Program-made: the position numbers and the translations under genes
Assembly (NCBI GenBank): GCA_965203965.1
Contig: CBDBDR010000017.1
Location: forward strand, 288,001 to 352,000
DNA: 64,000 bases
Source of the DNA: Thermodesulfobacteriota bacterium
Lineage (GTDB): Bacteria > Desulfobacterota_D > UBA1144 > Nemesobacterales > JAJCZQ01
Direction of reading: 5' to 3'
Shown: in pieces, positions 42,987 through 56,584 of the stretch
Layout of the letters: every line of letters starts with the position of its first letter
How positions within the stretch are numbered: the stretch's first letter is position 1
The notes under the pieces: model-generated
What the model was told of the DNA's origin: nothing
Seen by the model: the letters and a program-made list of their open reading frames with translations, nothing else
The model's database searches: none

Positions 42987-43161
42987 TATGTTTGAAAAAG
43001 AAACCGCAGGCACGCCCCGTTGTCAAGTATGGTAAATTGCCGAGATGATCTATGACGTTTCAGGTTCTAACAAAATATGGGTTCAGAAAAAATAATACAG
43101 TAATAAAGTTTCTACAAATTTTCTCTTGACACACGGTTATTTGTGCTTAAATTCTGGAATA

Positions 43162-43749
43162 ATGCAAAAGAAACTCGGTGATATTGCTACTGTTCAAATG
43201 GGATTTCCCTTTCGTTCACGTATTGAACCAGACGAGGATGGAAATGTCTCTATTATTCAAATGAGCAATTTAGGAGAAAATAGTTTGAAGGCTCATACGG
43301 ATCTGCTCAAGGTTTACCTAAAGAATATATCTCATAAGCACTTAGTGAAACAAAAAGATTTGATCTTTCGTTCAAGGGGAAAAACAATAAATGCAGTGAT
43401 AATTGATAAAGAAATTGAGCGAGCAGTCGTAGCGGCACCGTTAATTAGAATAAGAGTTACGGAAAAGGACGTTATTCCGGAATATCTTCTCTGGTTCATG
43501 AATCAGCCATTATCTCAAGCATTTTTGCACGGCAGAGCCACCGGAACTTCAATGCCTATGATCGGTAAGTCAACTCTTGAAGATCTGCGGATTACTATCC
43601 CTGATCTTGAAACTCAAAGGCAAATCGTAATACTTGCTCATTTATCGGACAAAGAGCAAAAACTAATGAAACGGTTGGCTAAGGCAAATGGTAGTTTAGT
43701 TCAAAAAACTTTGAAACAGTTGGTAACAGATCCTAAGAAGTCTTATTAG
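43162..43749 (+). CDS. Half-size (single TRD) type I R-M specificity subunit
   Basis: KKLGDIA, DLIFRSRG, PEYLLWFMN, IPDLETQRQI; directly upstream of hsdM. Confidence 0.8.
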   Translation: MQKKLGDIATVQMGFPFRSRIEPDEDGNVSIIQMSNLGENSLKAHTDLLKVYLKNISHKHLVKQKDLIFRSRGKTINAVIIDKEIERAVVAAPLIRIRVTEKDVIPEYLLWFMNQPLSQAFLHGRATGTSMPMIGKSTLEDLRITIPDLETQRQIVILAHLSDKEQKLMKRLAKANGSLVQKTLKQLVTDPKKSY

Positions 43750-43761
43750 AGGAGCAGAGAA

Positions 43762-45276
43762 ATGACAAATGGGACAATAGATCAAAAAAACATAGACAAT
43801 GCTGCATGGTCTGCCTGCAACACTTTTCGTGGAGTGATGGACGCGTCCGTTTACAAGGACTACATACTCGTGATGTTGTTTCTCAAATATGTTTCGGATG
43901 TTTGGAAGAGCCATTATGAGAAATACAAAAAGCAATACGGAGACCACAAAGAGCGCATCAACCGCCTTCTTAAAAATGAGCGGTTTGTTTTGCCTAAAGA
44001 CAGCAGTTTTTACAACCTGTATGAGAATCGTTCTGCTTCAAATATCGGTGAACTTATAAACATTGCGTTGACCGCATTTGAAGACGAAAACAAAGAGAAA
44101 CTGGAGGGTGTTTTCCGCAACATTGACTTCAATAGCGAAACAAATTTCGGCAAAACAAAAGACCGCAATCGCCGTCTTAAAACACTACTTGAAGATTTGA
44201 ACAAACCAGAGTTGGATATGAGTCCAGATAATGTTACAGAAGACATTATCGGCAATACATACATCTATCTGATAGAGCGTTTTGCGTCCGATGCTGGCAA
44301 AAAAGCGGGAGAGTTCTACACACCTCACAAGGTTTCGGAGTTGGTAGCAAAGTTATGCGACCCCAAGCCCGGAGCACGCATTTGCGACCCTACTTGTGGT
44401 TCTGGAGGGCTTCTAATTGAAGCCGCGCGCGAAGTGGGTGGCGATGATTACTCTCTTTGTGGGATGGAAGTCAACGGAGGTACTTGGGCGCTTTGTCGGA
44501 TGAATATGTTCCTTCACGGGATGGATTCAGCACGAATTGAATGGTGCAATACATTAACAGCCCCCGGACTCGTGGAAACCGACCGCCTGATGAGGTTTGA
44601 CAATATTGTCGCAAATCCACCTTTCTCGTTGGATAAGTGGGGAGCGGAAGAAGCGGGAAACGACATTTACAAGCGTTTTTGGCGAGGAATTCCTCCCAAG
44701 TCTAAGGGGGATTACGCTTTCATCAGTCACATGGTGGAGGCAGCTCTGGAAAAGAAAGGGCGCATTGCGGTTGTTGTCCCACATGGTGTTTTATTCAGGG
44801 GCGCGGCAGAGGGGCGTATCCGTCGCCATTTAATAGAAGAAAATCTGCTGGATGCCGTCATCGGCTTACCGGGTAATCTTTTTCCAACCACGTCCATTCC
44901 GGTTGCTATCTTGGTGTTTGACCGTTCACGCGAGACAGGTGGTGCAAATGAGAAACTCAAGGATGTGTTGTTCATTGATGCAAGCCGTGAGTATGAGTCC
45001 GGAAAAAATCAGAACAAGCTACTGGACAAGCATATAGAAAAGATCGTTGACACATATAAAAAGCGTAAAAGTGTTGACAAATATGCGCATTTGGCAAAAC
45101 CAGAAGAGATTGAAGAAAACGATTTCAACCTGAACATCCCGCGTTATGTGGACACCTTTGAGGAAGAAGAGGAGATAGATATAGACGCGGTGCAGCGAGA
45201 AATAGATCAACTGGAAAAAGAACTGTCCAAAGTGCGGATGGAGATGGCGAAAAAAATGAAGGAGATTAAAAGATGA
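43762..45276 (+). CDS. hsdM: Type I R-M methyltransferase subunit
   Basis: AGEFYTP, DPTCGSGG, ANPPF, PHGVLFRG, FNLNIPRYV. Confidence 0.97.
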   Translation: MTNGTIDQKNIDNAAWSACNTFRGVMDASVYKDYILVMLFLKYVSDVWKSHYEKYKKQYGDHKERINRLLKNERFVLPKDSSFYNLYENRSASNIGELINIALTAFEDENKEKLEGVFRNIDFNSETNFGKTKDRNRRLKTLLEDLNKPELDMSPDNVTEDIIGNTYIYLIERFASDAGKKAGEFYTPHKVSELVAKLCDPKPGARICDPTCGSGGLLIEAAREVGGDDYSLCGMEVNGGTWALCRMNMFLHGMDSARIEWCNTLTAPGLVETDRLMRFDNIVANPPFSLDKWGAEEAGNDIYKRFWRGIPPKSKGDYAFISHMVEAALEKKGRIAVVVPHGVLFRGAAEGRIRRHLIEENLLDAVIGLPGNLFPTTSIPVAILVFDRSRETGGANEKLKDVLFIDASREYESGKNQNKLLDKHIEKIVDTYKKRKSVDKYAHLAKPEEIEENDFNLNIPRYVDTFEEEEEIDIDAVQREIDQLEKELSKVRMEMAKKMKEIKR

Positions 45277-45494
45277 GCAAGATGCCAACAAATAAACATC
45301 ATCAAACATTTGAGGATGCTTGTCGCCGTACGGAAAACGGCGCCGAATTTTGGTCTGCACGCGAACTTTTGTCCATTCTCGATTATGGAAGTTGGGATAA
45401 ATTCAAGGCAGTCATTCATAAGTCTATAAGTGCTTGTGAGAATTCGGGCATGGTTTCCTCAGACCATTTTTCCCAGATGGGAAAAATGGTCTGA
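45273..45494 (+). pseudogene. dinD: DinD/BRO-like N-terminal fragment
   Basis: EFWSAREL..L.Y..W.KF..VI.K...ACENSG....DHF..GKMV then premature stop. Confidence 0.75.
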
Positions 45495-45614
45495 AGGGTT
45501 CGGGTCGGAGGTAATGGCTAAACAGGAGAGAAAGGAACAGGCATTGTTGAAAAGGATAAAAAGGGCATAAAATAGGTATTTTTTGCCTATATCTACAACG
45601 ACATATACACAAAA

Positions 45615-46184
45615 TTGAATTTTATGTACACATTAAGCAAACATATACATAATTTTGAGAGCATTCACCCGTTCCCTGACGGCAATGGTCGCATTGGTCG
45701 CGTGCTGAACGTGCTGTATCTGACGCACAAGGGGCTTTTAGACGCTCCCATCCTTTATTTGAGCCGAGCGATCAACCGCACAAAGCCAGACTACTACCGC
45801 TTATTGCAAGCCGTGCGTGAAGAGGGCGCATGGGAAGAATGGATCATCTACATACTGAGTGCCGTTACAGAAACGGCAAAATCAACCTTGCAACTTGTAT
45901 CGGGTATTCGGGAACTGATGGCTGAACACAAAAAACTTATACGAGATGAACTGCCGAAAATCTACTCTCAGGACTTGTTGAATAATCTGTTTCGCAACCC
46001 CTATACGCGTATTGACTACGTGGCGAAAGACCTAACGGTTGACCGCAGAACAGCACGCAAGTATCTCAAACAATTAACTGAAAAGGGGATTGTGGAGGAA
46101 GTAAAGGCGGGGAGGAACAACTACTACATAAACAAAAAACTGGTTGACCTGTTTGTCAGTGTCTCGGTGGAAGGGGATCAGTGA
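45615..46184 (+). pseudogene. Fic protein C-terminal fragment with HTH
   Basis: FESIHPFPDGNGRIGR near the ORF start, PILYLS, PYTRI, TARKYL; N-terminal half missing. Confidence 0.8.
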
Positions 46185-48334
46185 TGAGTAGGAAAGGGGA
46201 AAAGGAACGAGCGTTGCCCGATGGGTGGCAGGAAGTGAGGCTGGGGGACATAATGGAATTCAAAAATGGATTGAATACAGAGAAAGGAAACTATGGTAAG
46301 GGTGTAAAATTTGTGAACGTAATGGATGTTTTCAAGTTTAACTATCTTTATGAACATAATGTTGTTGGCTCTGTTCAAGTTAGTGAAAAAAACAGAATTG
46401 AATATTCAGTTAAATATGGGGATATCTTGTTTAATAGGACATCTGAAATACTTAATGAGATTGCTATGTCATCTGTATATCTCGATGAGAAAAAAATAAT
46501 CTTTGGAGGTTTTGTTATTAGAGGACGCCAAAAAATTACTGCTCTTACTCCTCGATTTTCTATTTGTTGTCTTCAATCCAATAAAGTACGAAAAGAATTA
46601 ATAAGACGAGGGCAAGGTGCCGTCCGAGCGAACATTGGACAAAAAGATCTAGCGAAAATTCCTGTTGTTATTCCACCGCTCCCCGAACAAAAAGCCATCA
46701 CCTCTTTACTGGAAACATGGGACACGGCGATTGAGAAAACTGAAGCATTGATTGAGGCAAAGGAAAAGCGGTTCAAGTGGTTGCTGAAAACACTCATCAG
46801 CAATCAGCAAGACAATCCTGAATGGCGGGAAGTGAGGTTGGGGGATGTTACGAAGGTTATTGTAGGCCAGTCTCCAAAAGGGATTTTCTATAATACAGAG
46901 GGTGAGGGCATGCCCTTCTATCAAGGTAAATCTGAATTTGGGAAAATCTACATTAACAATCCTAATATGTGGACTACTCAAACAACTAAAACGGCAGAGA
47001 AAGGCGATATTCTTATGTCCATTAGAGCTCCTGTTGGGTCAATTAACCGTACAAATAACAAAATTTGCATTGGCCGAGGGCTTGCTAGTATTAGGGTTCA
47101 TAGCATCAAACGAACGTTCTTATTTTTTTACTTGCAGTTTATCAAAAGCCAAATAATAGGAAATGGTGGCTCTATATTCAATTCGATTACTAAGCGTCAA
47201 GTTGAACAAATTCCAATTCTTTGCCCCCCAGTTTCTGAACAAAAAGCCATTGCTGCTGTACTAAACACGGTACAACGTGAAATTGATCTACTGGAACAAC
47301 TCACCCAACAATACCGCACACAAAAGCGCGTGCTGATGCAGAGATTATTGACAGGAGAATGGAGGACAAAGATGAATCGTTATATTCTGAGAATGGGCAC
47401 TTACGAGTGTCCTAAAACAGTAATTAAAAAAGAAAGATTTGAACAATTAAAGGAAGCGAGAAATATCTTGTCAAAAGCATTGGTTTTTGAGGGGAATTAC
47501 GAGATTATAGTGCATAATTACCTTGAGTTGGAAAAAGAATTGATGGGAATTACTATTGAAGATATTGGTAGAACTTATTATAGTTATGATGATTTCTTCA
47601 ATTATACACTTTCTTCTAATATCAGAGTATCAAACCTTCTGAATTCGGCAAAATTTTACATTGATACACTTTCGCAAACTCTCGAGAACTGCTTTCAAAA
47701 TGAGGAAGTTTCTCCTGATATAAAACAAATAATCAAAGAGGATGAGGGCAACTCGCTTCTTGAATTTGTTTATGAACTAAGGAACTATCTTCAGCATGTT
47801 GATTTGCCAGTGCATAACACCTTAATAAATAGAAGATGGACAGATGACAATCTTATGGAATATTCCACGCATATCTTTTCTTCAAAGAAATATCTTTCAG
47901 AGGATGAAAAGTCAGAATCAATACTTAAAAAAATGGAAGAACAAAAAATAATGAAAGAAGAAGAAATAAACCTAAACCTTACCATTAGACACTATGTAGA
48001 ATTCATCAGTAAAATGCATATTCAAACGAGATCTAAGATAGAAAAAAGAGTTAATGAGGCAAGAGATTGCATAGAATCTACGATTAAGGAATATTTAGAC
48101 GAACATAGGATTAAGGAAAAGGAATATTTAGATGAAGATGGGAAGTTTATAGGTTTTTTACATGCTTTCCATTTCAACCATAGTGAAATAGAAGAGAAAA
48201 TTCCTTTGTTTCTGGATTACGACGATGTTCGTCTTAATCTAATACGTAAGAACAACAAAGAACTGGTTAATCTACATAAACGATATGTTACAACACGAGT
48301 TGATTCAGTAAATAAGAAGGAAATATCTAAATAA
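46181..48334 (+). CDS. hsdS: HsdS (two TRDs) fused in frame to a 320-aa domain with an RxxxxH (HEPN-like) motif
   Basis: LPDGWQEVRLGD, PPLPEQKAI, WREVRLGD, PPVSEQKAIA, LMQRLLTGEWR, then MNRYIL...ELRNYLQH; internal GGAGG and ATG at 47372. Confidence 0.88.
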   Translation: MMSRKGEKERALPDGWQEVRLGDIMEFKNGLNTEKGNYGKGVKFVNVMDVFKFNYLYEHNVVGSVQVSEKNRIEYSVKYGDILFNRTSEILNEIAMSSVYLDEKKIIFGGFVIRGRQKITALTPRFSICCLQSNKVRKELIRRGQGAVRANIGQKDLAKIPVVIPPLPEQKAITSLLETWDTAIEKTEALIEAKEKRFKWLLKTLISNQQDNPEWREVRLGDVTKVIVGQSPKGIFYNTEGEGMPFYQGKSEFGKIYINNPNMWTTQTTKTAEKGDILMSIRAPVGSINRTNNKICIGRGLASIRVHSIKRTFLFFYLQFIKSQIIGNGGSIFNSITKRQVEQIPILCPPVSEQKAIAAVLNTVQREIDLLEQLTQQYRTQKRVLMQRLLTGEWRTKMNRYILRMGTYECPKTVIKKERFEQLKEARNILSKALVFEGNYEIIVHNYLELEKELMGITIEDIGRTYYSYDDFFNYTLSSNIRVSNLLNSAKFYIDTLSQTLENCFQNEEVSPDIKQIIKEDEGNSLLEFVYELRNYLQHVDLPVHNTLINRRWTDDNLMEYSTHIFSSKKYLSEDEKSESILKKMEEQKIMKEEEINLNLTIRHYVEFISKMHIQTRSKIEKRVNEARDCIESTIKEYLDEHRIKEKEYLDEDGKFIGFLHAFHFNHSEIEEKIPLFLDYDDVRLNLIRKNNKELVNLHKRYVTTRVDSVNKKEISK

Positions 48335-48455
48335 TAAATGACTTCATCTCAATTATTATAAGATTGAACAAAATTGTTTGATCTTATAAATTCTTGAGGT
48401 CTATGAAAAGCCTTGGAATTAACAAGACCACAGGCTACCGAATTGGCTCAACGGC

Positions 48456-49139
48456 TCAAAAAGAAATAAACTTGCTCAAACAATTATCTGAACAATACCG
48501 CACTCAAAAACGCGGGCTGATGCAGAAGTTGCTGACTGGAGAATGGAGGGTAAAGATATGATTACAAAAATCACGATGAACAATGTTACCAGTTTTAAAG
48601 AGAAAACCAGATTCATCTTTAACCGCTTGGGTTATGAATTTTCTAATGCGGTTCAAACGCCCATTAAAGGCAGAGTTAGCCCTTCTACGTAAGGTCAAAG
48701 TTCTGGTTGGATCAGTGCGTCTTCTTTCTGCCATTATGGGTTTTACCTTTGAGCTTCATCCAAGCCACAAAACGTGGTAATGTAGTATAATTTTCATTTA
48801 CTAATAGTATAGTTTTTTCTGTATAATAATTTTCAGCAATTCAGTATAGAAATAACGTTTTCTACATGATGAAACAAAGTTTGATCATTTGGAATTATAC
48901 TGTTCCATGATCAGGTCTATAAAGAGTTTTACAATGGGTGAAGCCATTCCTCAGACTCAGTCGGCGGAGTTGTATTGGCGGTTACGAGAGCCAAGCGGGC
49001 AAAACCACGCTGGCGTATCGTACGAAAATGTTCAATACATTGAACAAAATTGTTTGATCTGATAAATTCTTGAGGTCTATGAAAAGCCTTGGAATTAACA
49101 AGACCACAGGCTACTGAACTGGCTCAACAGCTCAAAAAG
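48456..49139 (+). repeat. About 680-bp direct repeat, unit A (partner 50241-50907)
   Basis: Collinear near-identity at offsets 1785 and 1770, with a divergent central segment of about 100 bp. Confidence 0.93.
48609..48800 (-). pseudogene. Phage-like fragment: possible minor head (MuF/SPP1 gp7) N-terminus plus tail of the upstream gene; second copy about 50394-50580
   Basis: MAERRRTDPTRTLTLRRRANSAFNGRLNRIRKFITQAV; family recalled from the DPTRT pattern, not searched. Confidence 0.4.
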
Positions 49140-49233
49140 AAATAGACTTGCTCAAACAATTAGCAGAACGATACCGCACTCAAAAGCGCGGGCTGATGCA
49201 GAAGTTGCTGACTGGGGAGTGGAGAGTGAAGAG

Positions 49234-50181
49234 ATGAGCACATCTTTTAAAATATTAAGCATAGATGGTGGAGGAGTGCGAGGAATTCTTCCCGCCAAGA
49301 TACTGAAGCTCATGGAAGCCGAGCTCGGCATAGACGTACATGAAACCTTTGATCTCATTGTTGGCACTAGCACTGGTAGTATCATAGCTGGGGCAATCGC
49401 CGTAAAGTACAAATTGGCTAAATTAGTAAGTGATTACAATGAAAATGCTCCGAAAGTTTTCAAGAAAAGATGGAATTTCATGGGGCTTTACAGATCTAAA
49501 TACAGTTCAGCCTTCCTTGAAAGTTTTCTTCGTAAAATATTTGGTGAGGTTACATTGGGAGAAATAGAAAAACCGCTCATTCTTAATGCTACAAATATCA
49601 GCGATGGTAATCTTCATGTTTTCAAGTCATCGTATCAAAAAAAACAACGAGAGGGGGAAGAGGAGCAGGTTTATAACAGGGATGGAGGAGTACCTTTGTA
49701 CAAAGCAACTCTAGCCTCTTGTTCGGCACCAATTTATTTTGATCCGGTGAAGATAATATTTGATCCGGTGGATAAAGAAGAAAAACTTATTTGTGACGGG
49801 GGTATTTGGGCTAATAATCCTTCCTTGGTTGGATACAGTGACGCTATCAGGAATTTCAAGAATGTTGGAACCGATAATGTCAAGATCTTGTCTTTGGGAA
49901 CTGGACAAACCAAGCAAATTTACCAACCAGCAAAAGCATGGGGATACTTAACGGGATGGAAACATACGAAATTGATAGACTTCTCCATATCATGTCAGAC
50001 AGAGTTTCCTAAAAATGTTTTGGAACTTATTGATTTAGATAAAATTCTCAGGATCAACCCTTCTATTGATAATTACGAGATTGACAATTACCAAAGCATC
50101 CCAAAGTTAATGGAACTGGCTAAAAAGGAATTCAATAGTAGCAGTGAAAAAATTTCAAATTTTCTTAACATAAGAAGATAG
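49234..50181 (+). CDS. Patatin-like phospholipase (CapV-like)
   Basis: ILSIDGGGVRG, GTSTG, SCSAP.YF, DGGIWANNP, ILSLGTG; ATG overlaps the TGA of an hsdS tail. Confidence 0.9.
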   Translation: MSTSFKILSIDGGGVRGILPAKILKLMEAELGIDVHETFDLIVGTSTGSIIAGAIAVKYKLAKLVSDYNENAPKVFKKRWNFMGLYRSKYSSAFLESFLRKIFGEVTLGEIEKPLILNATNISDGNLHVFKSSYQKKQREGEEEQVYNRDGGVPLYKATLASCSAPIYFDPVKIIFDPVDKEEKLICDGGIWANNPSLVGYSDAIRNFKNVGTDNVKILSLGTGQTKQIYQPAKAWGYLTGWKHTKLIDFSISCQTEFPKNVLELIDLDKILRINPSIDNYEIDNYQSIPKLMELAKKEFNSSSEKISNFLNIRR

Positions 50182-50240
50182 GAGACAAAAATTACAGTTT
50201 ACGAGGAAAAATTTGTTCTCTTTTCTGATAGGTATTCCTG

Positions 50241-50907
50241 TCAAAAAGAAATGGACTTGCTCAAACAATTAGCAGAACGATACCGCACTCAAAAACGCGG
50301 TTTGATGCAGAGGTTGTTGACTGGAGAATGGAGGGTGAAGATATGATCACAAAGATCACGATGAACAACATCACCAGTTTTAAAGAGAAAAGCAGATTCA
50401 TCTTTAACCGCTTGGGTTATGAATTTTCTAATGAGGTTCAAACGCCCATTAAAGGCAGAGTTAGCCCTTCTACGTAAGGTTAAAGTTCTGGTTAGATCAG
50501 TGCGTCTTCTTTCTGCCATTATGCGTCTTACCTTTGAGCTTCATCCAAGCCACAAAACGTGGTAATGTAGTATAATTTTTTCCACCCAATATGGAGAAAA
50601 AACTGTATAGAAATTTTTACTGATTGTTGTATAAAAATAGAATTATAAGGCTGAATTTTCGGCATTATATTGCTCCATGATCAGGTCTATAAAGAGTTTT
50701 ACAATGAGTGAAGCCATTCCTCAGACTCAGTCGGCGGAGTTGTATTGGCGGTTACGAAAGCCAAGCAGGCAAGACCACGCTGGCGTACCGTACGAAAATG
50801 TTCAGTACATTGAACAAAATTGTTTCATCTGATAAACTTTCACATCTATGAAAAGCCTGGAATTAACAAGACCACAGGCTACCGAACTGGCTCAACGGCT
50901 CAAAAAG
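50241..50907 (+). repeat. About 670-bp direct repeat, unit B
   Basis: Partner of 48456-49139. Confidence 0.93.
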
Positions 50908-51232
50908 CCTTGCCGGTTTATTCAGTCCATATCGGGGGCGAAGCAGAAAAGAAAAGTCGCTTTGCTGATATTGGGTGAGGTGCAGAAGTTTCCACACTGG
51001 TCAGCGATTGTAAAATATCTTTGGGATGAAGATAGTCGCATGAAAAGAATGGTGGCGGCAAAGTGCCTGTTTCGTTTCCCAGATTGGACGTTTTTTGCAA
51101 AATATTCAAAACTGCTCAGCAGTTGATCGTTTCCTGTCAACGCCTGCGGAACATTGGTTAAATTGATGCCTGATTTTCTATTTGACGAAAAAAGCCTCTC
51201 CCAGATCCCAGCTTTACAGCAGTTGATCAATC
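50848..51232 (+). pseudogene. Multiply deleted copy of the AAA_14/DUF4143 gene plus the hsdR 5' end
   Basis: Ordered blocks match about 51457-51556, 51700-51810, 52523-52596 and 52624-52728. Confidence 0.9.
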
Positions 51233-51385
51233 CAGTGCAACAATTGGTTTTTGGGATGAATGGAAGAAAGAAAAGGATGGACAAAGGAATAAAAGAATCT
51301 ATTGAAACATTAAGAAAACAGAGTAAATCTCAATGAAAATAACACTAAAACAGGGGAAGCAAGCACTGCTTTTAAATAACAAAAA

Positions 51386-51425
51386 TGTTCAATACATTGA
51401 ACATTTTTGTTCAATGTATTGAACA
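51386..51425. promoter_or_regulatory. Tandem palindromic operator TGTTCAAT-NN-ATTGAACA (two copies, 22-bp period); single copies at 49029 and 50799, half site at 48363
   Basis: Exact 8-2-8 palindromes about 30 bp upstream of every copy of the AAA_14 ATG. Confidence 0.75.
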
Positions 51426-51456
51426 AAATTGTTCAGTCTGATAATCTTTTTAGGCG

Positions 51457-52662
51457 ATGAAAAGTCCGAAATTCATAAGACCTCAAGCCACCGAATTATT
51501 GCGACGACTCAAAGAGCCTCGCCGGTTTATTCAATCCATATCGGGGGCGAGGCAGATCGGCAAAACAACCCTTGCCCTACAAGTGGCAGAGCAAAGCCGA
51601 TTGCCTTATCACTTTGCAAGTGCTGATAGGCCGACGCTTCGCGCCGGTGATGGATGGATCGTGTCGCAATGGAAGGAGGCGCGACATCTGGCGGAACAAT
51701 CAAAAAGGAAAGGCGCTTTGCTGATATTGGATGAGGTGCATAAGGTTCCACACTGGCCAGCGACTGTAAAAGGTCTTTGGGATGAAGATACTCGCATGAA
51801 AAGAATGGTGAAGGTGGTGCTGCTCGGTTCAGCACCGCTGTTGATCGGGCGAGGACTTACGGAAAGCCTCGCCGGGCGTTTTGAAACCGTGTATCTGCCA
51901 CATTGGAGTTTTCCCGAGATGCGAGATGCCTTCGGATGGGATTTGCAACAATATCTTTTTTACGGTGCCTATCCGGGAGCCTCACCCTTCATAAAACAGC
52001 CGGCGCGCTGGTCGCGCTACATAAAGAACTCTCTTATAGAAACAACCATTTCCCGCGATGTGCTTTTATTTTCCCCTGTGGACAAACCGGCTTTGCTTAG
52101 GCAATTGTTCGAGATGGGTTGTTCCTATTCGGGGCAGGTACTCTCTTACAGAAAACTTGCAGGACTGCTTCAGGATAAAGGTAACGTTACCACCCTTGCG
52201 CATTACCTTGACTTGCTCGCCGGAGTCGGCACGGTTGCCGGGTTGCAAAAATATGCGGGTAGCTTCGGGGCACGCCGGCGTTCCATACCCAAACTTCAAG
52301 TCTTCAACACTGCCCTGATCACCGCGCAATCTGGGATGACCTGGCAGGAGGTGTTCAAAGATGGACGACTGCTGGGGCGGCTTACGGAGTCGGCCGTGGG
52401 AGCTCATCTGCTCAATGCAGCCACTGGCGGGGAGTGTGAATTATTCTATTGGCGAGATAACAATCGCGAAGTAGATTTTGTTTTGCGCAGAGGAAAGAAG
52501 CTTGTTGCCATAGAAGTAAAAAGCGGTAAAATGCCTGTTTCGTTTCCCGGATTGGATGCTTTTTCCAAAATATTCAAAACTGCTCAGCAGTTGATTGTTG
52601 GTGAAGGCGGAATTCCCATTGATCGTTTCCTGTCAACACCTGCGGAACATTGGTTAAATTGA
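51457..52662 (+). CDS. AAA_14 ATPase with DUF4143 PD-(D/E)xK domain
   Basis: GARQIGKTT, LDEVH, ESLAGR, YGAYP, ESAV, EVDFV..IEVKSG. Confidence 0.9.
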   Translation: MKSPKFIRPQATELLRRLKEPRRFIQSISGARQIGKTTLALQVAEQSRLPYHFASADRPTLRAGDGWIVSQWKEARHLAEQSKRKGALLILDEVHKVPHWPATVKGLWDEDTRMKRMVKVVLLGSAPLLIGRGLTESLAGRFETVYLPHWSFPEMRDAFGWDLQQYLFYGAYPGASPFIKQPARWSRYIKNSLIETTISRDVLLFSPVDKPALLRQLFEMGCSYSGQVLSYRKLAGLLQDKGNVTTLAHYLDLLAGVGTVAGLQKYAGSFGARRRSIPKLQVFNTALITAQSGMTWQEVFKDGRLLGRLTESAVGAHLLNAATGGECELFYWRDNNREVDFVLRRGKKLVAIEVKSGKMPVSFPGLDAFSKIFKTAQQLIVGEGGIPIDRFLSTPAEHWLN

Positions 52663-55600
52663 TGCCTGATTTTCTATCTGACGAAAAATGCCTCTCCCAG
52701 ATCCCAGCTTTACAGCAACTGATAAATCTGGGCTATGAGTATCTGCCACCTGAACAGGCGTTTCAGGAACGCAATAGCAAATACGGCAATGTTTTGCTGG
52801 AAAACATACTGCGAGACCAACTCAAAAAAATAAACCGCATTAATTATAGAGGCAGAGAATACCTTTTCAGTGAGGAGAACATTCAGTCTGCCATTGAGAA
52901 GATCAAAAACATTCCATATGACGGTTTGATAAAAACAAATGAAAAGATCTACGATCTTTTGACGCTTGGCACGTCGCTTAAGCAGACCATTGAGGGCGAT
53001 TCCAAAAGTCACACACTTCGCTATATTGACTGGGAAAATACGAATGCAAATGTTTTTCACGCCACTGCGGAGTTTTCGGTTGAACGTTCCCGGAGTTCTG
53101 AAACTGTAAGACCGGACATTGTGCTGTTTGTAAACGGCATTCCTCTTGTTGTGATTGAGTGCAAAACGTCCGGAGTTGCCGTGGATGAAGGCGTTTCTCA
53201 GATGATCCGCAATCAGGGAGAGGATCATATTCCTCGCCTTTTTACTTATGTGCAGTTGGTAATGGCTGTAAATAAGAATGAGGCAAAATACGCGACCGCC
53301 GGAACTTCAAAGAAATTCTGGAGCGTCTGGAAAGAGTTAGAAGATCACGAAGATGAAACAAAAACCATTGTGGATCAACCGCTTTCAGATGAGAACAAGA
53401 ATGTTCTTTTTTCTTCCAATGAATTTGCTTATGCCCGTGCGCATTTTGATAAAATTGAGAGCCAAGGTGGACGTCTTGTTACGGAACAAGATAAAGCAGT
53501 TCATAGCCTGTGCCGTCCTGAGCGCCTGCTTGAGATCGTTTACGGGTTTACAATTTTTGATAGTAAAACAAAAAAAATTGCCAGATACCAACAGTTCTTT
53601 CTTGTTCGCTCGGCAATTAAAAACATCAAAACAAAAAACAGTGAGGGTGTGAGAAAAGGTGGGATCGTGTGGCACACGCAAGGTTCTGGTAAATCCATAA
53701 CAATGGTTATGCTCACGCGAGCCCTTGTGATGGATCCGGAACTGAAAAACACGCGGATCATTCTTGTTACAGACCGCAAAGATCTGGACGAACAACTCGG
53801 CAACACCTTTGCTGCTTGCGGTTTGAACAAAGAACGCGCCACTTCGGGACGTGATCTGGTCAAGCATATAAAACGCAAGACGGACATTATCACCACGTTG
53901 ATAAACAAATTTGAAACGGCATCTGCTGCCGAAAAATACGTAGATGATTCACCTGATATTATCGCTCTTGTGGACGAGAGCCACCGCACAAATTTCGGGG
54001 AATTGTCCGCAAATATGAGGAGGATGCTTCCAAAGGCATGCTTTATAGGTTTTACCGGCACTCCGTTGCTAAAAAAAGAGAAAAACAGTTTTGCGCGCTT
54101 TGGGGAGTTGATTGAGCCGTCTTATCCGGTCAGAGCAGCCATAGATGACAAACAGGTTGTCCCTCTGATCTACGAGGGTCGGCATGTGGAGATAAAACAG
54201 GATAAAGAAGCCATTGATAAATGGTTTGCCCGTCATACTGAGGGGCTTTCCGATAAACAGAAAACTGATCTAAAGAAAAAATATTCACGTGCTGCAAAAC
54301 TGAACAATTCCGATAGGGTCATCTATATGACGGCTTTTGACATTAGCGAGCATTTTCGCGCCAATTGGAAAGAGACGGGAGAGATGGGATTTAAGGCTCA
54401 ACTTGTGGCTCTGAACAAGGCAACTGCTCTTAAATATCACAACTATCTTAAAGAGATAGGAATGGTTTCATCAGAGGTGATCATTTCTGCTCCGGATACG
54501 CGTAAGGGGTATGAGGAAGTGGGTGCTGAATCTGAAAATGAAATTGTTAAATTCTGGAAATTGATGATGGAAAGGCACAGCAATGAAGAAAAATATAACC
54601 AGAATATAATCAATCAGTTCAAGGACTCCGAACATCCTGAAATTCTTATTGTCGTGGATAAACTGCTGACCGGATTTGACGCGCCCAGAAACACTGTTCT
54701 TTATTTGTGTCGCTCCTTGAGAGAACATACCTTGCTTCAGGCAATAGCGCGCGTTAACCGTCTTTGTGAAGGCAAGGAATTTGGCTACATAATTGACTAT
54801 GCCCATGTTCTTGAAGAACTTGACAAGACCTTGACGACATACGAAGCCCTTGCGGGTTTTGAAGAGAGTGAAATTGCAGACCTTCTTATTTCCATTAACG
54901 AAGAAGTGAAAAAACTTCCTCAACGCTATTCAGACCTTTGGGAGGTCTTCAAAGAGATCAAAAATTCCCACGATGAAGAAGTGTATGAGAGACACCTTGC
55001 AGATGAGGAATTAAGAAACAAATTTTATGAACGATTTACCGCCTACGGGAAAACCCTTTCCATTGCGCTTTCATCCGAGAAATTCATTACGGAAATCTCT
55101 GATACTGAACTGAAAAACTATAAGGGTGATCTCAAACGTTTTAATAAACTGCGCCATGCAGTGAGATCGCGCTATGCCGACACGATTGATTACGGAGAGT
55201 ACGAGCGGAAAATAAAGAAACTGCTGGACACCCACGTAAAAGCGGACGATGTTACGCAGCTAAACTATCCGGTCAATATCTTTGACGATCAAACATTTAA
55301 GGAAATGAAAGATAAACGGGGCATTTACGAAACAAAAACCACTGCGGCGAGGGCGGATATCATAGCGCACAATATCAGACGCAAAATTACGGAGAGTCTG
55401 GAAAAAGACCCGGCTTTCTATAAGAAGTTTTCAAAACTTATTCAGGACGCGATTGATGACTTTAAAAAAGAGCGGATATCAGACCTTGATTATTTGGATA
55501 GAGTAACAGACATACGAAATGAGGTCGCTGATAGAAAAAAACGTGAAGATGTCCCTGCTGATATAGCGGACAACGATGAGGCATCCGCGTATTTTGGGGT

Positions 55601-55874
55601 GATAAGACCGATCCTGAAAGAAATTGCTGCCGACGAGAATTTAACTGAACAAGTAGCGATGCTGACTGCCATTGCCATTCAAGAAGCAATAGAAAGAAAC
55701 TGGAAAGTGGATTTTTGGAACGATAGCGATGCGCAGAAGAGAATGAAAAATGATATTGACAGTTTTTTCTATGATGAGGTTGAGGATGTTCATGGCATTG
55801 ATCTGACCGAGTATCAGATGGATGAAATTTTTGGCAAAACAATGAAAGTGGCAAAATTCTGGAGATATTCCTGA
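52662..55874 (+). CDS. hsdR: Type I R-M restriction subunit
   Basis: PDIVLFVNGIPLVVIECK, HTQGSGKS, DESHR, GFTGTP, LLTGFDAP, QAIARVNR. Confidence 0.97.
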   Translation: MPDFLSDEKCLSQIPALQQLINLGYEYLPPEQAFQERNSKYGNVLLENILRDQLKKINRINYRGREYLFSEENIQSAIEKIKNIPYDGLIKTNEKIYDLLTLGTSLKQTIEGDSKSHTLRYIDWENTNANVFHATAEFSVERSRSSETVRPDIVLFVNGIPLVVIECKTSGVAVDEGVSQMIRNQGEDHIPRLFTYVQLVMAVNKNEAKYATAGTSKKFWSVWKELEDHEDETKTIVDQPLSDENKNVLFSSNEFAYARAHFDKIESQGGRLVTEQDKAVHSLCRPERLLEIVYGFTIFDSKTKKIARYQQFFLVRSAIKNIKTKNSEGVRKGGIVWHTQGSGKSITMVMLTRALVMDPELKNTRIILVTDRKDLDEQLGNTFAACGLNKERATSGRDLVKHIKRKTDIITTLINKFETASAAEKYVDDSPDIIALVDESHRTNFGELSANMRRMLPKACFIGFTGTPLLKKEKNSFARFGELIEPSYPVRAAIDDKQVVPLIYEGRHVEIKQDKEAIDKWFARHTEGLSDKQKTDLKKKYSRAAKLNNSDRVIYMTAFDISEHFRANWKETGEMGFKAQLVALNKATALKYHNYLKEIGMVSSEVIISAPDTRKGYEEVGAESENEIVKFWKLMMERHSNEEKYNQNIINQFKDSEHPEILIVVDKLLTGFDAPRNTVLYLCRSLREHTLLQAIARVNRLCEGKEFGYIIDYAHVLEELDKTLTTYEALAGFEESEIADLLISINEEVKKLPQRYSDLWEVFKEIKNSHDEEVYERHLADEELRNKFYERFTAYGKTLSIALSSEKFITEISDTELKNYKGDLKRFNKLRHAVRSRYADTIDYGEYERKIKKLLDTHVKADDVTQLNYPVNIFDDQTFKEMKDKRGIYETKTTAARADIIAHNIRRKITESLEKDPAFYKKFSKLIQDAIDDFKKERISDLDYLDRVTDIRNEVADRKKREDVPADIADNDEASAYFGVIRPILKEIAADENLTEQVAMLTAIAIQEAIERNWKVDFWNDSDAQKRMKNDIDSFFYDEVEDVHGIDLTEYQMDEIFGKTMKVAKFWRYS

Positions 55875-56584
55875 TGTCAGAAGTTCAATGTTCTGTTAAA
55901 TATGGAGACGATCCTATTGAGTTTCGCTTAACGTACTCAAAAAGAAAATCTCTGGAAATTTCGGTCTATCCAAATGGCGCGGTTGCCGTGAAAGCTCCAC
56001 TTGGAACGAATGAAGACCTTGTTATGCGCCGAGTTCGCAAGCGCTCCCGGTGGATAAAAAAACAGATTGATTATTTTTCACAGTTTGAACCCCGAACACC
56101 AAAACGGAGGTTTGTGGGTGGGGAAAGCCATCTCTATCTCGGCAGAAAATACAGGCTGAAGATAACGCAGTCCAAAGACGAGGGAGTTTTGCTCAAGAGA
56201 GGATTTTTTCATATAGGGGTTTCCGCAAACAAACCCGAGACCGTTTCGGCGTTACTTGAAAATTGGTATAGGAGCAGGGCTGACCTTTATTTTTCTCAAG
56301 TGTTTGAGAATTGCTGGGAGAATTTTCAGAAAAAAGGACTGGAAAAACCCGCTCTCAAGATCCGCAAAATGAAAACACGTTGGGGAAGTTTGAGTCCCAA
56401 AGGCAAAATGACCCTTAACCAAGATCTTATCAAAGCTCCCAGAGAGTGCATTGAGTATGTGGTCATACACGAACTATGCCACCTGCTTCATCATAATCAC
56501 GGCAAGGAGTTCTATAACTTGCTTGATCACTTACTGCCTGATTGGACAAAACGGAAACATAAATTGGAAAAGGTGCTTTCTTAG
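55874..56584 (+). CDS. YgjP/DUF45 (M48-like) metallohydrolase, commonly after hsdR
   Basis: GESHLYLG, MKTRWGS, YVVIHELCHL..NH. Confidence 0.9.
   Translation: MSEVQCSVKYGDDPIEFRLTYSKRKSLEISVYPNGAVAVKAPLGTNEDLVMRRVRKRSRWIKKQIDYFSQFEPRTPKRRFVGGESHLYLGRKYRLKITQSKDEGVLLKRGFFHIGVSANKPETVSALLENWYRSRADLYFSQVFENCWENFQKKGLEKPALKIRKMKTRWGSLSPKGKMTLNQDLIKAPRECIEYVVIHELCHLLHHNHGKEFYNLLDHLLPDWTKRKHKLEKVLS

Follow-up and report, generated by a model that had tools for sequence, protein, structure and literature searches.

Why does the specificity gene of a type I restriction-modification (R-M) operon run, without a stop codon, into a second protein of 320 residues? The question is raised by a 64-kb stretch of DNA from a Thermodesulfobacteriota bacterium (assembly GCA_965203965.1, contig CBDBDR010000017.1, positions 288,001 to 352,000; hereafter the window, whose first letter is position 1), in which the open reading frame (ORF) 46181-48334 of the plus strand joins a complete hsdS to a HEPN-like protein that we call X. 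Our current working hypothesis, to which we give a probability of roughly 0.6, is that X is a stand-alone cargo protein, similar to those of abortive infection (Abi) systems, which lies in a type I R-M operon and was accidentally fused to HsdS by a deletion of 2 nucleotides (nt).

The ORF is a single frame of 717 codons that starts with GTG and translates without interruption. Its first part is an HsdS with both target recognition domains (TRDs), and the LLTGEWR tail with which it closes is common to three remnant copies located downstream; the 320 residues of X had no match above chance in Pfam, PADLOC, or NCBIfam. The junction reads TGG AGG ACA AAG ATG AAT, i.e., ...EWRTK-MNRYIL..., and an intact GGAGG is followed, after 6 nt, by ATG 47372. 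Copies of the final ~107 nt of hsdS are present at 48451, 49127, and 50236 with 70 to 75% identity (repeat family D3), and in each of these three tail copies the stop codon overlaps the ATG of the next ORF (48553-48561, 49229-49237, and 50338-50346). An alignment of the tails shows that the first one, at the fusion, ends with aagATGA and is 2 nt shorter than its sisters, which end with aagatATGA or aagagATGA, at exactly that place. The sequence ELRNYLQH, with the codon of R137 at 47780-47782 and that of H142 at 47795-47797, contains an R-x4-H motif. The preliminary description of this DNA, made from the letters alone, had already read the in-frame fusion, the R-x4-H motif, the difference between the tails, and the internal Shine-Dalgarno (SD) sequence with its ATG, and all four readings proved exact.

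To judge the junction in other samples, Logan contigs of four public sequencing runs (labeled X2, X6, X8, and X9) were compared with the window over 45600-48400. Contigs of three runs, from two studies, span the junction with 0 differences or gaps: 46816-48400 in run X2 (depth, 40.8), 46806-47444 in run X6 (depth, 10.5), and 47150-47365 together with 47341-47625 in run X8. Run X9 covers only 46834-47066 and the far end, outside the junction. Nothing beyond the general frequency of indel errors speaks for an assembly or sequencing artefact, that is, a false 2-nt deletion, and since independent contigs of X2, X6, and X8 from two studies cover 47360-47376 without a difference or gap, we hold such an error to be barely conceivable.

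Run X6 contains a second contig (depth, 11.5 of 22) in which CT is put in behind 47366, 4 nt are deleted at 47398, and 2 nt are deleted at 47403. This allele reads TGG AGG ACT CAA AGA TGA, so that the hsdS stop overlaps the start of X. It differs from the window at many linked sites, with linked substitutions and two in-frame deletions, and the two deletions match a two-residue gap near the N terminus of P0002, the closest database homologue of X, whose type of junction is known only through this contig. Based on the X6 allele and on its agreement with the gap in P0002, we conclude that a related strain is unfused and that the lineage of the window carries a 2-nt deletion. Hence, both the fusion and an unfused allele exist in DNA, and the origin of the fusion in a 2-nt change, which the preliminary description had deduced from the sister tails, is confirmed by a natural unfused allele: on assembled contigs, the fused form is supported in three runs and the form with CT sits on a diverged allele.

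The presence of both junction forms in one metagenomic run (X6) could also be taken to mean that the junction toggles between fused and unfused within a population, a phase-variable switch that the preliminary description had attributed to dinucleotide slippage. However, the junction sequence, ggaggacaaagatga, holds no dinucleotide or homopolymer tract longer than 3, the unfused contig has linked deletions at 47398 and 47403 that mark a diverged strain, and only the fused form was found in runs X2 and X8. Because the junction contains no repeat and the differences between the two forms are linked, slippage switching is unsupported; the unfused allele belongs to another strain and is not a phase variant, and we consider the switch exceedingly unlikely.

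Is a fused X the rule in its family? An exhaustive search of 1.84 billion cluster representatives (clusters at 50% identity) retrieved relatives of X in 1378 clusters at E ≤ 1e-3 and in 536 at E ≤ 1e-10. The best 150 of the 1378 clusters all consist of proteins of 183 to 344 residues, and a search for longer homologues (561 to 2000 residues) in 5.8 billion proteins returned only the window's own fusion product, listed with 716 residues. P0002 is 77% identical to X, is free-standing, and has 325 residues; together with the two next closest homologues, P0003 and P0004, it starts (MNSYIL, MNRYIL, and MRHYL, respectively) at the position of ATG 47372. Judged from these sequences, ATG 47372 corresponds to the normal N terminus of the family, whose members are normally free-standing proteins of ~300 residues. 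Other HsdS fusions to this domain, for which the preliminary description had proposed a search, did not turn up, the search yielding none beyond the window's own gene. The ESM Atlas contained only unnamed "hypothetical protein" clusters, at 0.94, and no structure model for this protein; a tblastn search of plasmids with X gave no match, and a single-protein search of genome and metagenome contigs gave no confirmed relative. We read the fusion as a recent mutation confined to one lineage; it is no conserved architecture.

The genomic context of X points in the same direction. A wider locus scan, conducted with a 19-row subset of the 118-row alignment of X, delivered 62 X loci across many phyla. 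Within the window's own phylum, X was found in 3 of 120 genomes, this one included; in the two others it sits among housekeeping genes, and one of these two loci duplicates one of the 62, as judged by its neighbors. At none of the 62 loci did the window's HsdM, HsdR, or HsdS have a tblastn match (E ≤ 1e-5) within 6 kb. No neighbor family occurs in more than 3 loci, and 65 of the 109 immediate neighbors of X are without a Pfam family at E ≤ 1e-5. About 10 of the 62 loci adjoin a defense or mobile gene, and ordinary metabolic genes are found among the neighbors too. The defense neighbors comprise TIR_2 with an integrase (L007), AbiJ_NTD4 (L014), and HEPN_AbiU2 with GmrSD_N (L024), and further neighbors are a pEK499_p136 HEPN protein (L025), Fic (L033), Bro-N (L047), AlpA (L063), and phage tail genes (L067). 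An MmeI-type enzyme lies directly upstream of X at 2 of the 62 loci, a second kind of R-M linkage. The overall pattern is that of a self-contained, mobile, single-gene module and not that of a dedicated type I partner.

Some individual loci deserve mention in their own right. In two Bacteroidales loci (L022, 174-1109; L034, 26-1924), the X homologue follows the MmeI-type (type IIL) R-M gene at 26 to 32 nt. The next same-strand gene after X encodes a 711-residue protein with a DnaJ domain at L005 (9326-11461) and a 436-residue protein without a Pfam family at L006 (9172-10482); BLASTP shows no relationship between these two proteins, and neither of them was seen again at the other loci.

The preliminary description tentatively assigned the tail of the fusion to the HEPN RNases on the strength of its RxxxxH motif. 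Among 118 aligned members of the family, E54, R137, and H142 never vary (118/118), and E40, N138, and Q141 are conserved in at least 90%; the consensus around the motif is EYRFMEALRNYVQHxGLPVH. The AlphaFold (AF2) model of X, with a predicted local distance difference test score (pLDDT) of 93.2 and a predicted template modeling score (pTM) of 0.90, shows long helices at 20-66 and 72-108, a short insert, and a helix at 128-142 that ends in the motif, followed by a beta hairpin (149-171), a long helix (201-244), and small beta elements at both termini. In this predicted structure the motif forms the C terminus of the third core helix, and a loop comes next. According to the available portion of the survey by Anantharaman et al. 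(PMC3710099), the HEPN motif is found at the "end of helix-3," with a polar residue (N, D, or H) after the R and an acidic residue upstream. In X, the acidic residue is represented by the invariant E54 and by E40, without a clear Ex3[KR] pattern, and X fits each point of the definition as that portion of the survey words it. The best structural neighbors of the model are HEPN toxins, with Z scores of at most 7.8.

A link to one known HEPN family, LA2681 (PF18733), is visible in several comparisons. BLASTP aligned X with the LA2681 protein L069 over 112 residues from the motif onward, motif on motif (E = 6e-5 in a single comparison), and hhalign against a 61-sequence LA2681 alignment likewise placed motif on motif, with P = 0.0035 versus P = 0.33 for a reversed control; in global mode, hhalign returned nothing for the real or the reversed template. 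The LA2681 hidden Markov model (HMM) retrieved 109 of 152 X sequences at E ≤ 1 (8 of 152 when reversed) and 16 at E ≤ 0.01 (none when reversed), and the reciprocal search retrieved 105 of 120 and 5 of 120 at the same thresholds (1 and 0 when reversed). In a second colinear segment, individually weak, E40 of X aligns on a conserved D of the LA2681 family. The LA2681 family is rare: PF18733 was found in 1 of 401 sampled genomes of one class, the single match being the comparison protein L069, and in none of the 3 genomes carrying X, whose own sequence in the window has no PF18733 match either. A homodimer prediction for X scored 0.29 and 0.16 versus a mark of 0.42, which has no bearing either way. 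Based on the placement of the motif, the predicted fold, and the weak profile links to LA2681, we think it quite likely that X belongs to the HEPN superfamily, so that the original assignment of the tail is a probable one.

Several results weigh against our working hypothesis. With respect to the HEPN assignment, Foldseek of the X model found nothing at E ≤ 1e-3 in the PDB and BFVD, a PDB sequence-profile search with X gave 0 hits, Pfam HEPN_LA2681 matches 3 of the 118 family members with a best E of 0.0018, below its cutoff of 27 bits, and the hhalign probability for X versus LA2681 is only 9.3%, meaning that homology to HEPN is not secure. With respect to the accidental nature of the fusion, Logan contigs omit rare variants, so that junction indels of low frequency would stay invisible, and the fused allele, being present in several samples, is at least tolerated and could be selected.

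The weakness of all homology scores to HEPN raises the alternative that X is not a HEPN RNase but a helical bundle of another function, in which R and H serve something else. Bundles give middling Z scores by chance, p130Cas, LGN, and designed proteins scoring as high, and X has extra beta elements at 2-17, 149-171, and 263-278 and about twice the size of a minimal HEPN domain. Yet, in all 118 sequences, the Rx4H spacing is exact, R and H are invariant, and an N follows the R; the motif-on-motif match to LA2681 HEPN spans 112 residues; the reversed-sequence controls fail; and the available part of PMC3710099 locates the motif where it is predicted in X, closing the third core helix. We regard a non-HEPN nature of X as unlikely, although it is a reading to be reckoned with.

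We propose the following scenario for the preferred reading, an accidental fusion of a cargo gene. As its sequence and model suggest, X would be a HEPN-type RNase that works without metal and belongs with the single-protein abortive-infection systems; it would have arrived as a cargo cassette directly behind hsdS, like the neighboring patatin cassette. The hsdS tail ahead of a cargo gene would supply a ribosome-binding site (in the GAA TGG AGG codons), the ATGA coupling, and homology for recombination. In this lineage, the hsdS stop would then have been removed by the loss of 2 nt just ahead of the overlap, and ribosomes starting at hsdS would read through and produce a 717-residue HsdS-X chimera with no linker; the first predicted strand of X starts 1 residue past the last HsdS residue, an absence of linker that may disturb either half of the chimera. 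Ribosomes starting at the kept GGAGG-N6-ATG would still make free X, and we infer that free X is probably still produced from this site. By analogy with single-protein HEPN Abi systems, X may be an RNase that inhibits itself until infection turns it on, and would thereby act in defense.

The preliminary description favored a different design, a guard toxin tethered to the specificity subunit. Under this alternative, the HEPN RNase on HsdS would be controlled by the R-M complex, as PrrC is kept latent with EcoprrI, disabling of the restriction enzyme by a phage would set the RNase free or activate it, and free X may pair with the tethered copy. X does occupy the position of prrC, between hsdS and hsdR, and the available portion of PMC3710099, from which the account of PrrC is taken, counts no fewer than 16 HEPN clades with a link to R-M systems. 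Moreover, three runs from two studies contain the fused allele, no part of X and none of its invariant residues is missing, and the SD sequence and ATG are preserved. Against a functional tether, this gene is the only one found with the fusion, which its nearest relative lacks, the X family has no link to type I R-M systems (0 of 62 loci with HsdM, HsdR, or HsdS), no linker separates HsdS from the first predicted strand of X, and the same portion of PMC3710099 places R-M-linked HEPN domains on nuclease, helicase, and ATPase subunits, "not to the methylases," with HsdS unmentioned there. A tethered guard toxin as a design is not supported, and the best 150 members of the family are free-standing. 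Since the fusion is unique and the sister allele is unfused, an accident is the more likely explanation, and we judge a functional tethered guard to be improbable.

A functional tether would be new, given the pattern described in that portion of PMC3710099 and given that full-text literature searches found no description of an HsdS-HEPN fusion. If true, RNA cleavage would depend on the state of the R-M complex, and HEPN would for the first time be seen joined to a subunit on the specificity/methylation side. Still bolder is the joint proposition that the chimera was selected as a covalent guard of the PrrC-EcoprrI type, working with free X, and that the four hsdS tails are adapters for the capture and expression of cargo; we see this as a long shot. 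If it were true, the hsdS tails would provide recombination homology, a ribosome-binding site, and ATGA coupling for collecting defense cargo. The natural coexistence of fused and unfused hsdS-X alleles may offer a way to learn whether HsdS tolerates or exploits a large C-terminal passenger. More generally, X represents a large, widespread family with invariant R and H in an RNxxQH motif and without a Pfam, PADLOC, or NCBIfam model. Its members frequently adjoin known defense genes, which makes it a candidate for a new single-gene HEPN-type abortive-infection system.

The surroundings of the fusion in the window consist of a plus-strand type I R-M operon, stretched by cargo genes according to Pfam and PADLOC (Table 1).

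Table 1. Coordinates of the R-M operon, its cargo genes, and the hsdS tail copies in the window
Feature	Position	Strand	Evidence
Half-size hsdS, one TRD, 207 residues, 5' of hsdM	43126..43749	+	Pfam Methylase_S E=5.3e-14, one stretch
hsdM, type I methyltransferase subunit	43762..45276	+	Pfam N6_Mtase E=3.3e-100, HsdM_N E=4.3e-28
SoFic-like gene, truncated, C-terminal part only	45615..46184	+	PADLOC SoFic E=2e-66; Pfam SoFic-like_C and end of Fic
HsdS part of fusion ORF, residues 1-397, two TRDs, ends LLTGEWRTK	46181..47371	+	Pfam Methylase_S E=4.9e-35, 2 stretches; translation
Junction: GGAGG 47361-47365, 6 nt, ATG 47372-47374	47361..47374	+	Sequence, tail alignment
X, 320-residue HEPN-like protein, fusion residues 398-717	47372..48334	+	Homologue starts, family search, model
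R137-N-Y-L-Q-H142, candidate Rx4H catalytic motif	47780..47797	+	Conservation in 118 sequences; aligns on RNHLEH of LA2681 HEPN
hsdS 3' tail copy 2, ends aagatATGA	48451..48561	+	Overlaps start of 44-codon remnant ORF 48558-48692
hsdS 3' tail copy 3, ends aagagATGA	49127..49237	+	Overlaps ATG of patatin gene
Patatin-like phospholipase cargo gene	49235..50181	+	Pfam Patatin E=1.9e-26; PADLOC phospholipase effector PDLC00758 E=2.5e-81
hsdS 3' tail copy 4, ends aagatATGA	50236..50346	+	Overlaps second 44-codon remnant ORF 50343-50477
AAA_14/DUF4143 ATPase, PADLOC candidate PDC-S01	51457..52662	+	Pfam; PADLOC PDLC04791 E=7.5e-162
hsdR, type I restriction subunit	52650..55874	+	Pfam HSDR_N, SWI2_SNF2, T1R_D3-like, ResIII
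YgjP-like metallopeptidase, operon end	55874..56584	+	Pfam YgjP-like E=7.6e-59

Upstream of the fusion, the operon contains a half-size hsdS, directly ahead of hsdM. Half-size HsdS proteins acting as dimers can serve as working specificity subunits, and a dimer of this one could provide specificity even if the HsdS-X chimera were inactive. In run X2, many contigs match the conserved parts of hsdS at 46225-46685 and 46845-47238 with one TRD skipped or replaced; these contigs stem either from paralogues (the half-hsdS, for example) or from further hsdS alleles present in these samples. The SoFic-like gene matches positions 188-358 of the 361 of the PADLOC profile, its N-terminal half being gone, and it is preceded by a 73-residue ORF with a weak Bro-N match (region 45273-46184). 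This broken gene is another damaged defense gene within the operon.

Between X and the intact PDC-S01 gene lies a cassette-like array (48346-51456). Behind each tail copy comes a cargo ORF, its ATG overlapping the stop of the tail, and copies of the promoter and of the first ~20 codons of PDC-S01 (48363-48566 and 49039-49242, 92% alike) stand ahead of tails 2 and 3, which suggests that hsdS tails and PDC-S01 heads of different alleles have recombined more than once. The repeated hsdS tails further suggest how genes become embedded in R-M operons: since each cargo carries the last ~107 nt of hsdS, it brings along both homology and signals for coupled translation, and we propose a role for the tails in gene capture.

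The array also contains debris. A chimeric mini-ORF (48394-48561; 55 residues from TTG, 52 from ATG 48403) fuses the N terminus of PDC-S01 in frame with an hsdS tail and stops at the ATGA shared with the next ORF; its counterpart at 49082 is interrupted by a TGA. The mini-ORF could keep translational coupling for the downstream cargo or be due to chance. A 44-codon ORF (MITKITMNNVTSFKEK...) occurs in two copies (48558-48692 and 50343-50477) within a 300-nt repeat (48456-48755 and 50241-50540, 93% alike). Neither the 44-codon ORFs nor the 76-residue ORFs that overlie them on the minus strand have a Pfam family, and the 44-codon ORF is probably the stump of a lost cargo gene. Finally, 50799-51232 is an internally deleted pseudo-copy of PDC-S01 with the first bases of hsdR, its pieces matching 51408-51556, 51703-51810, 52523-52599, and 52619-52728 at 79 to 95% identity; a 92-residue ORF in it (50848-51126) has a weak AAA_14 match (E = 4.7e-4).

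How does X compare with known HEPN proteins? The LA2681-like family shares with it the motif block (YELRNHLEH..SVH versus YELRNYLQH..PVH in X), an acidic residue in the first long helix (E40 of X on D), and the colinearity of the two matched segments. LA2681 proteins, however, have ~520 residues, with the HEPN domain C-terminal to tetratricopeptide repeats (TPR), according to Table 1 in the available part of PMC3710099, whereas X has ~300 residues and no TPR and, in the model, beta strands at its termini and a beta hairpin inserted behind the motif. The HEPN toxins associated with minimal nucleotidyltransferases (MNT; PDB 7ae2, 8xdj, 6m6u, and 5yep; HI0074, 1jog) have ~135 residues and an MNT antitoxin as partner; no MNT lies next to X, which is longer by ~180 residues. 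X resembles AbiD/AbiF, AbiU2, AbiV, AbiJ, and HEC-08 in being free-standing, in lacking a conserved partner, in its variable or defense neighborhoods, and in the Rx4H motif, but X has no match to their Pfam or PADLOC models. In the accessible text of the preprint by Payne et al. (10.1101/2024.01.29.577857), the defense conferred by HEC-08 is lost when the H of the motif is mutated.

PrrC, an anticodon nuclease, with EcoprrI is a parallel in position, a HEPN-type gene between hsdS and hsdR of a type I system (type Ic in the case of PrrC). PrrC is kept latent by EcoprrI and freed by the T4 protein Stp, a logic of multilayered defense described in the available part of PMC3710099. PrrC has an N-terminal ABC ATPase and binds the R-M complex as a separate polypeptide, whereas X has no ATPase domain according to Pfam and the model. 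In addition, the PrrC family is almost always embedded in R-M systems, as stated in the accessible text of the Payne et al. preprint, unlike X, for which such embedding is not family-wide (0 of 62 loci). The positional analogy between X and PrrC is apt.

The window as a whole resembles systems with embedded genes, in which cargo on the same strand lies between hsdM/S and hsdR. Such embedding in type I R-M operons is amply documented. Examples are TgvAB in VPI-2 of Vibrio cholerae, which are cargo genes of a type I R-M operon (PMC11411939, in its available part), and the PDC candidates derived from "guilt by embedding" (Payne et al. preprint, in its accessible text), of which PDC-S01 is one in our window. 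The window departs from such systems in that one cargo is fused to hsdS and in that each cargo is preceded by its own hsdS 3' tail. X may already be among the supplementary families of the Payne et al. preprint; HEPN genes in R-M operons and "guilt by embedding" are already established, and nothing here overturns current ideas. What our analysis adds to these systems is a curious lineage-specific fusion and a cassette structure around a HEPN-like gene in an R-M operon.

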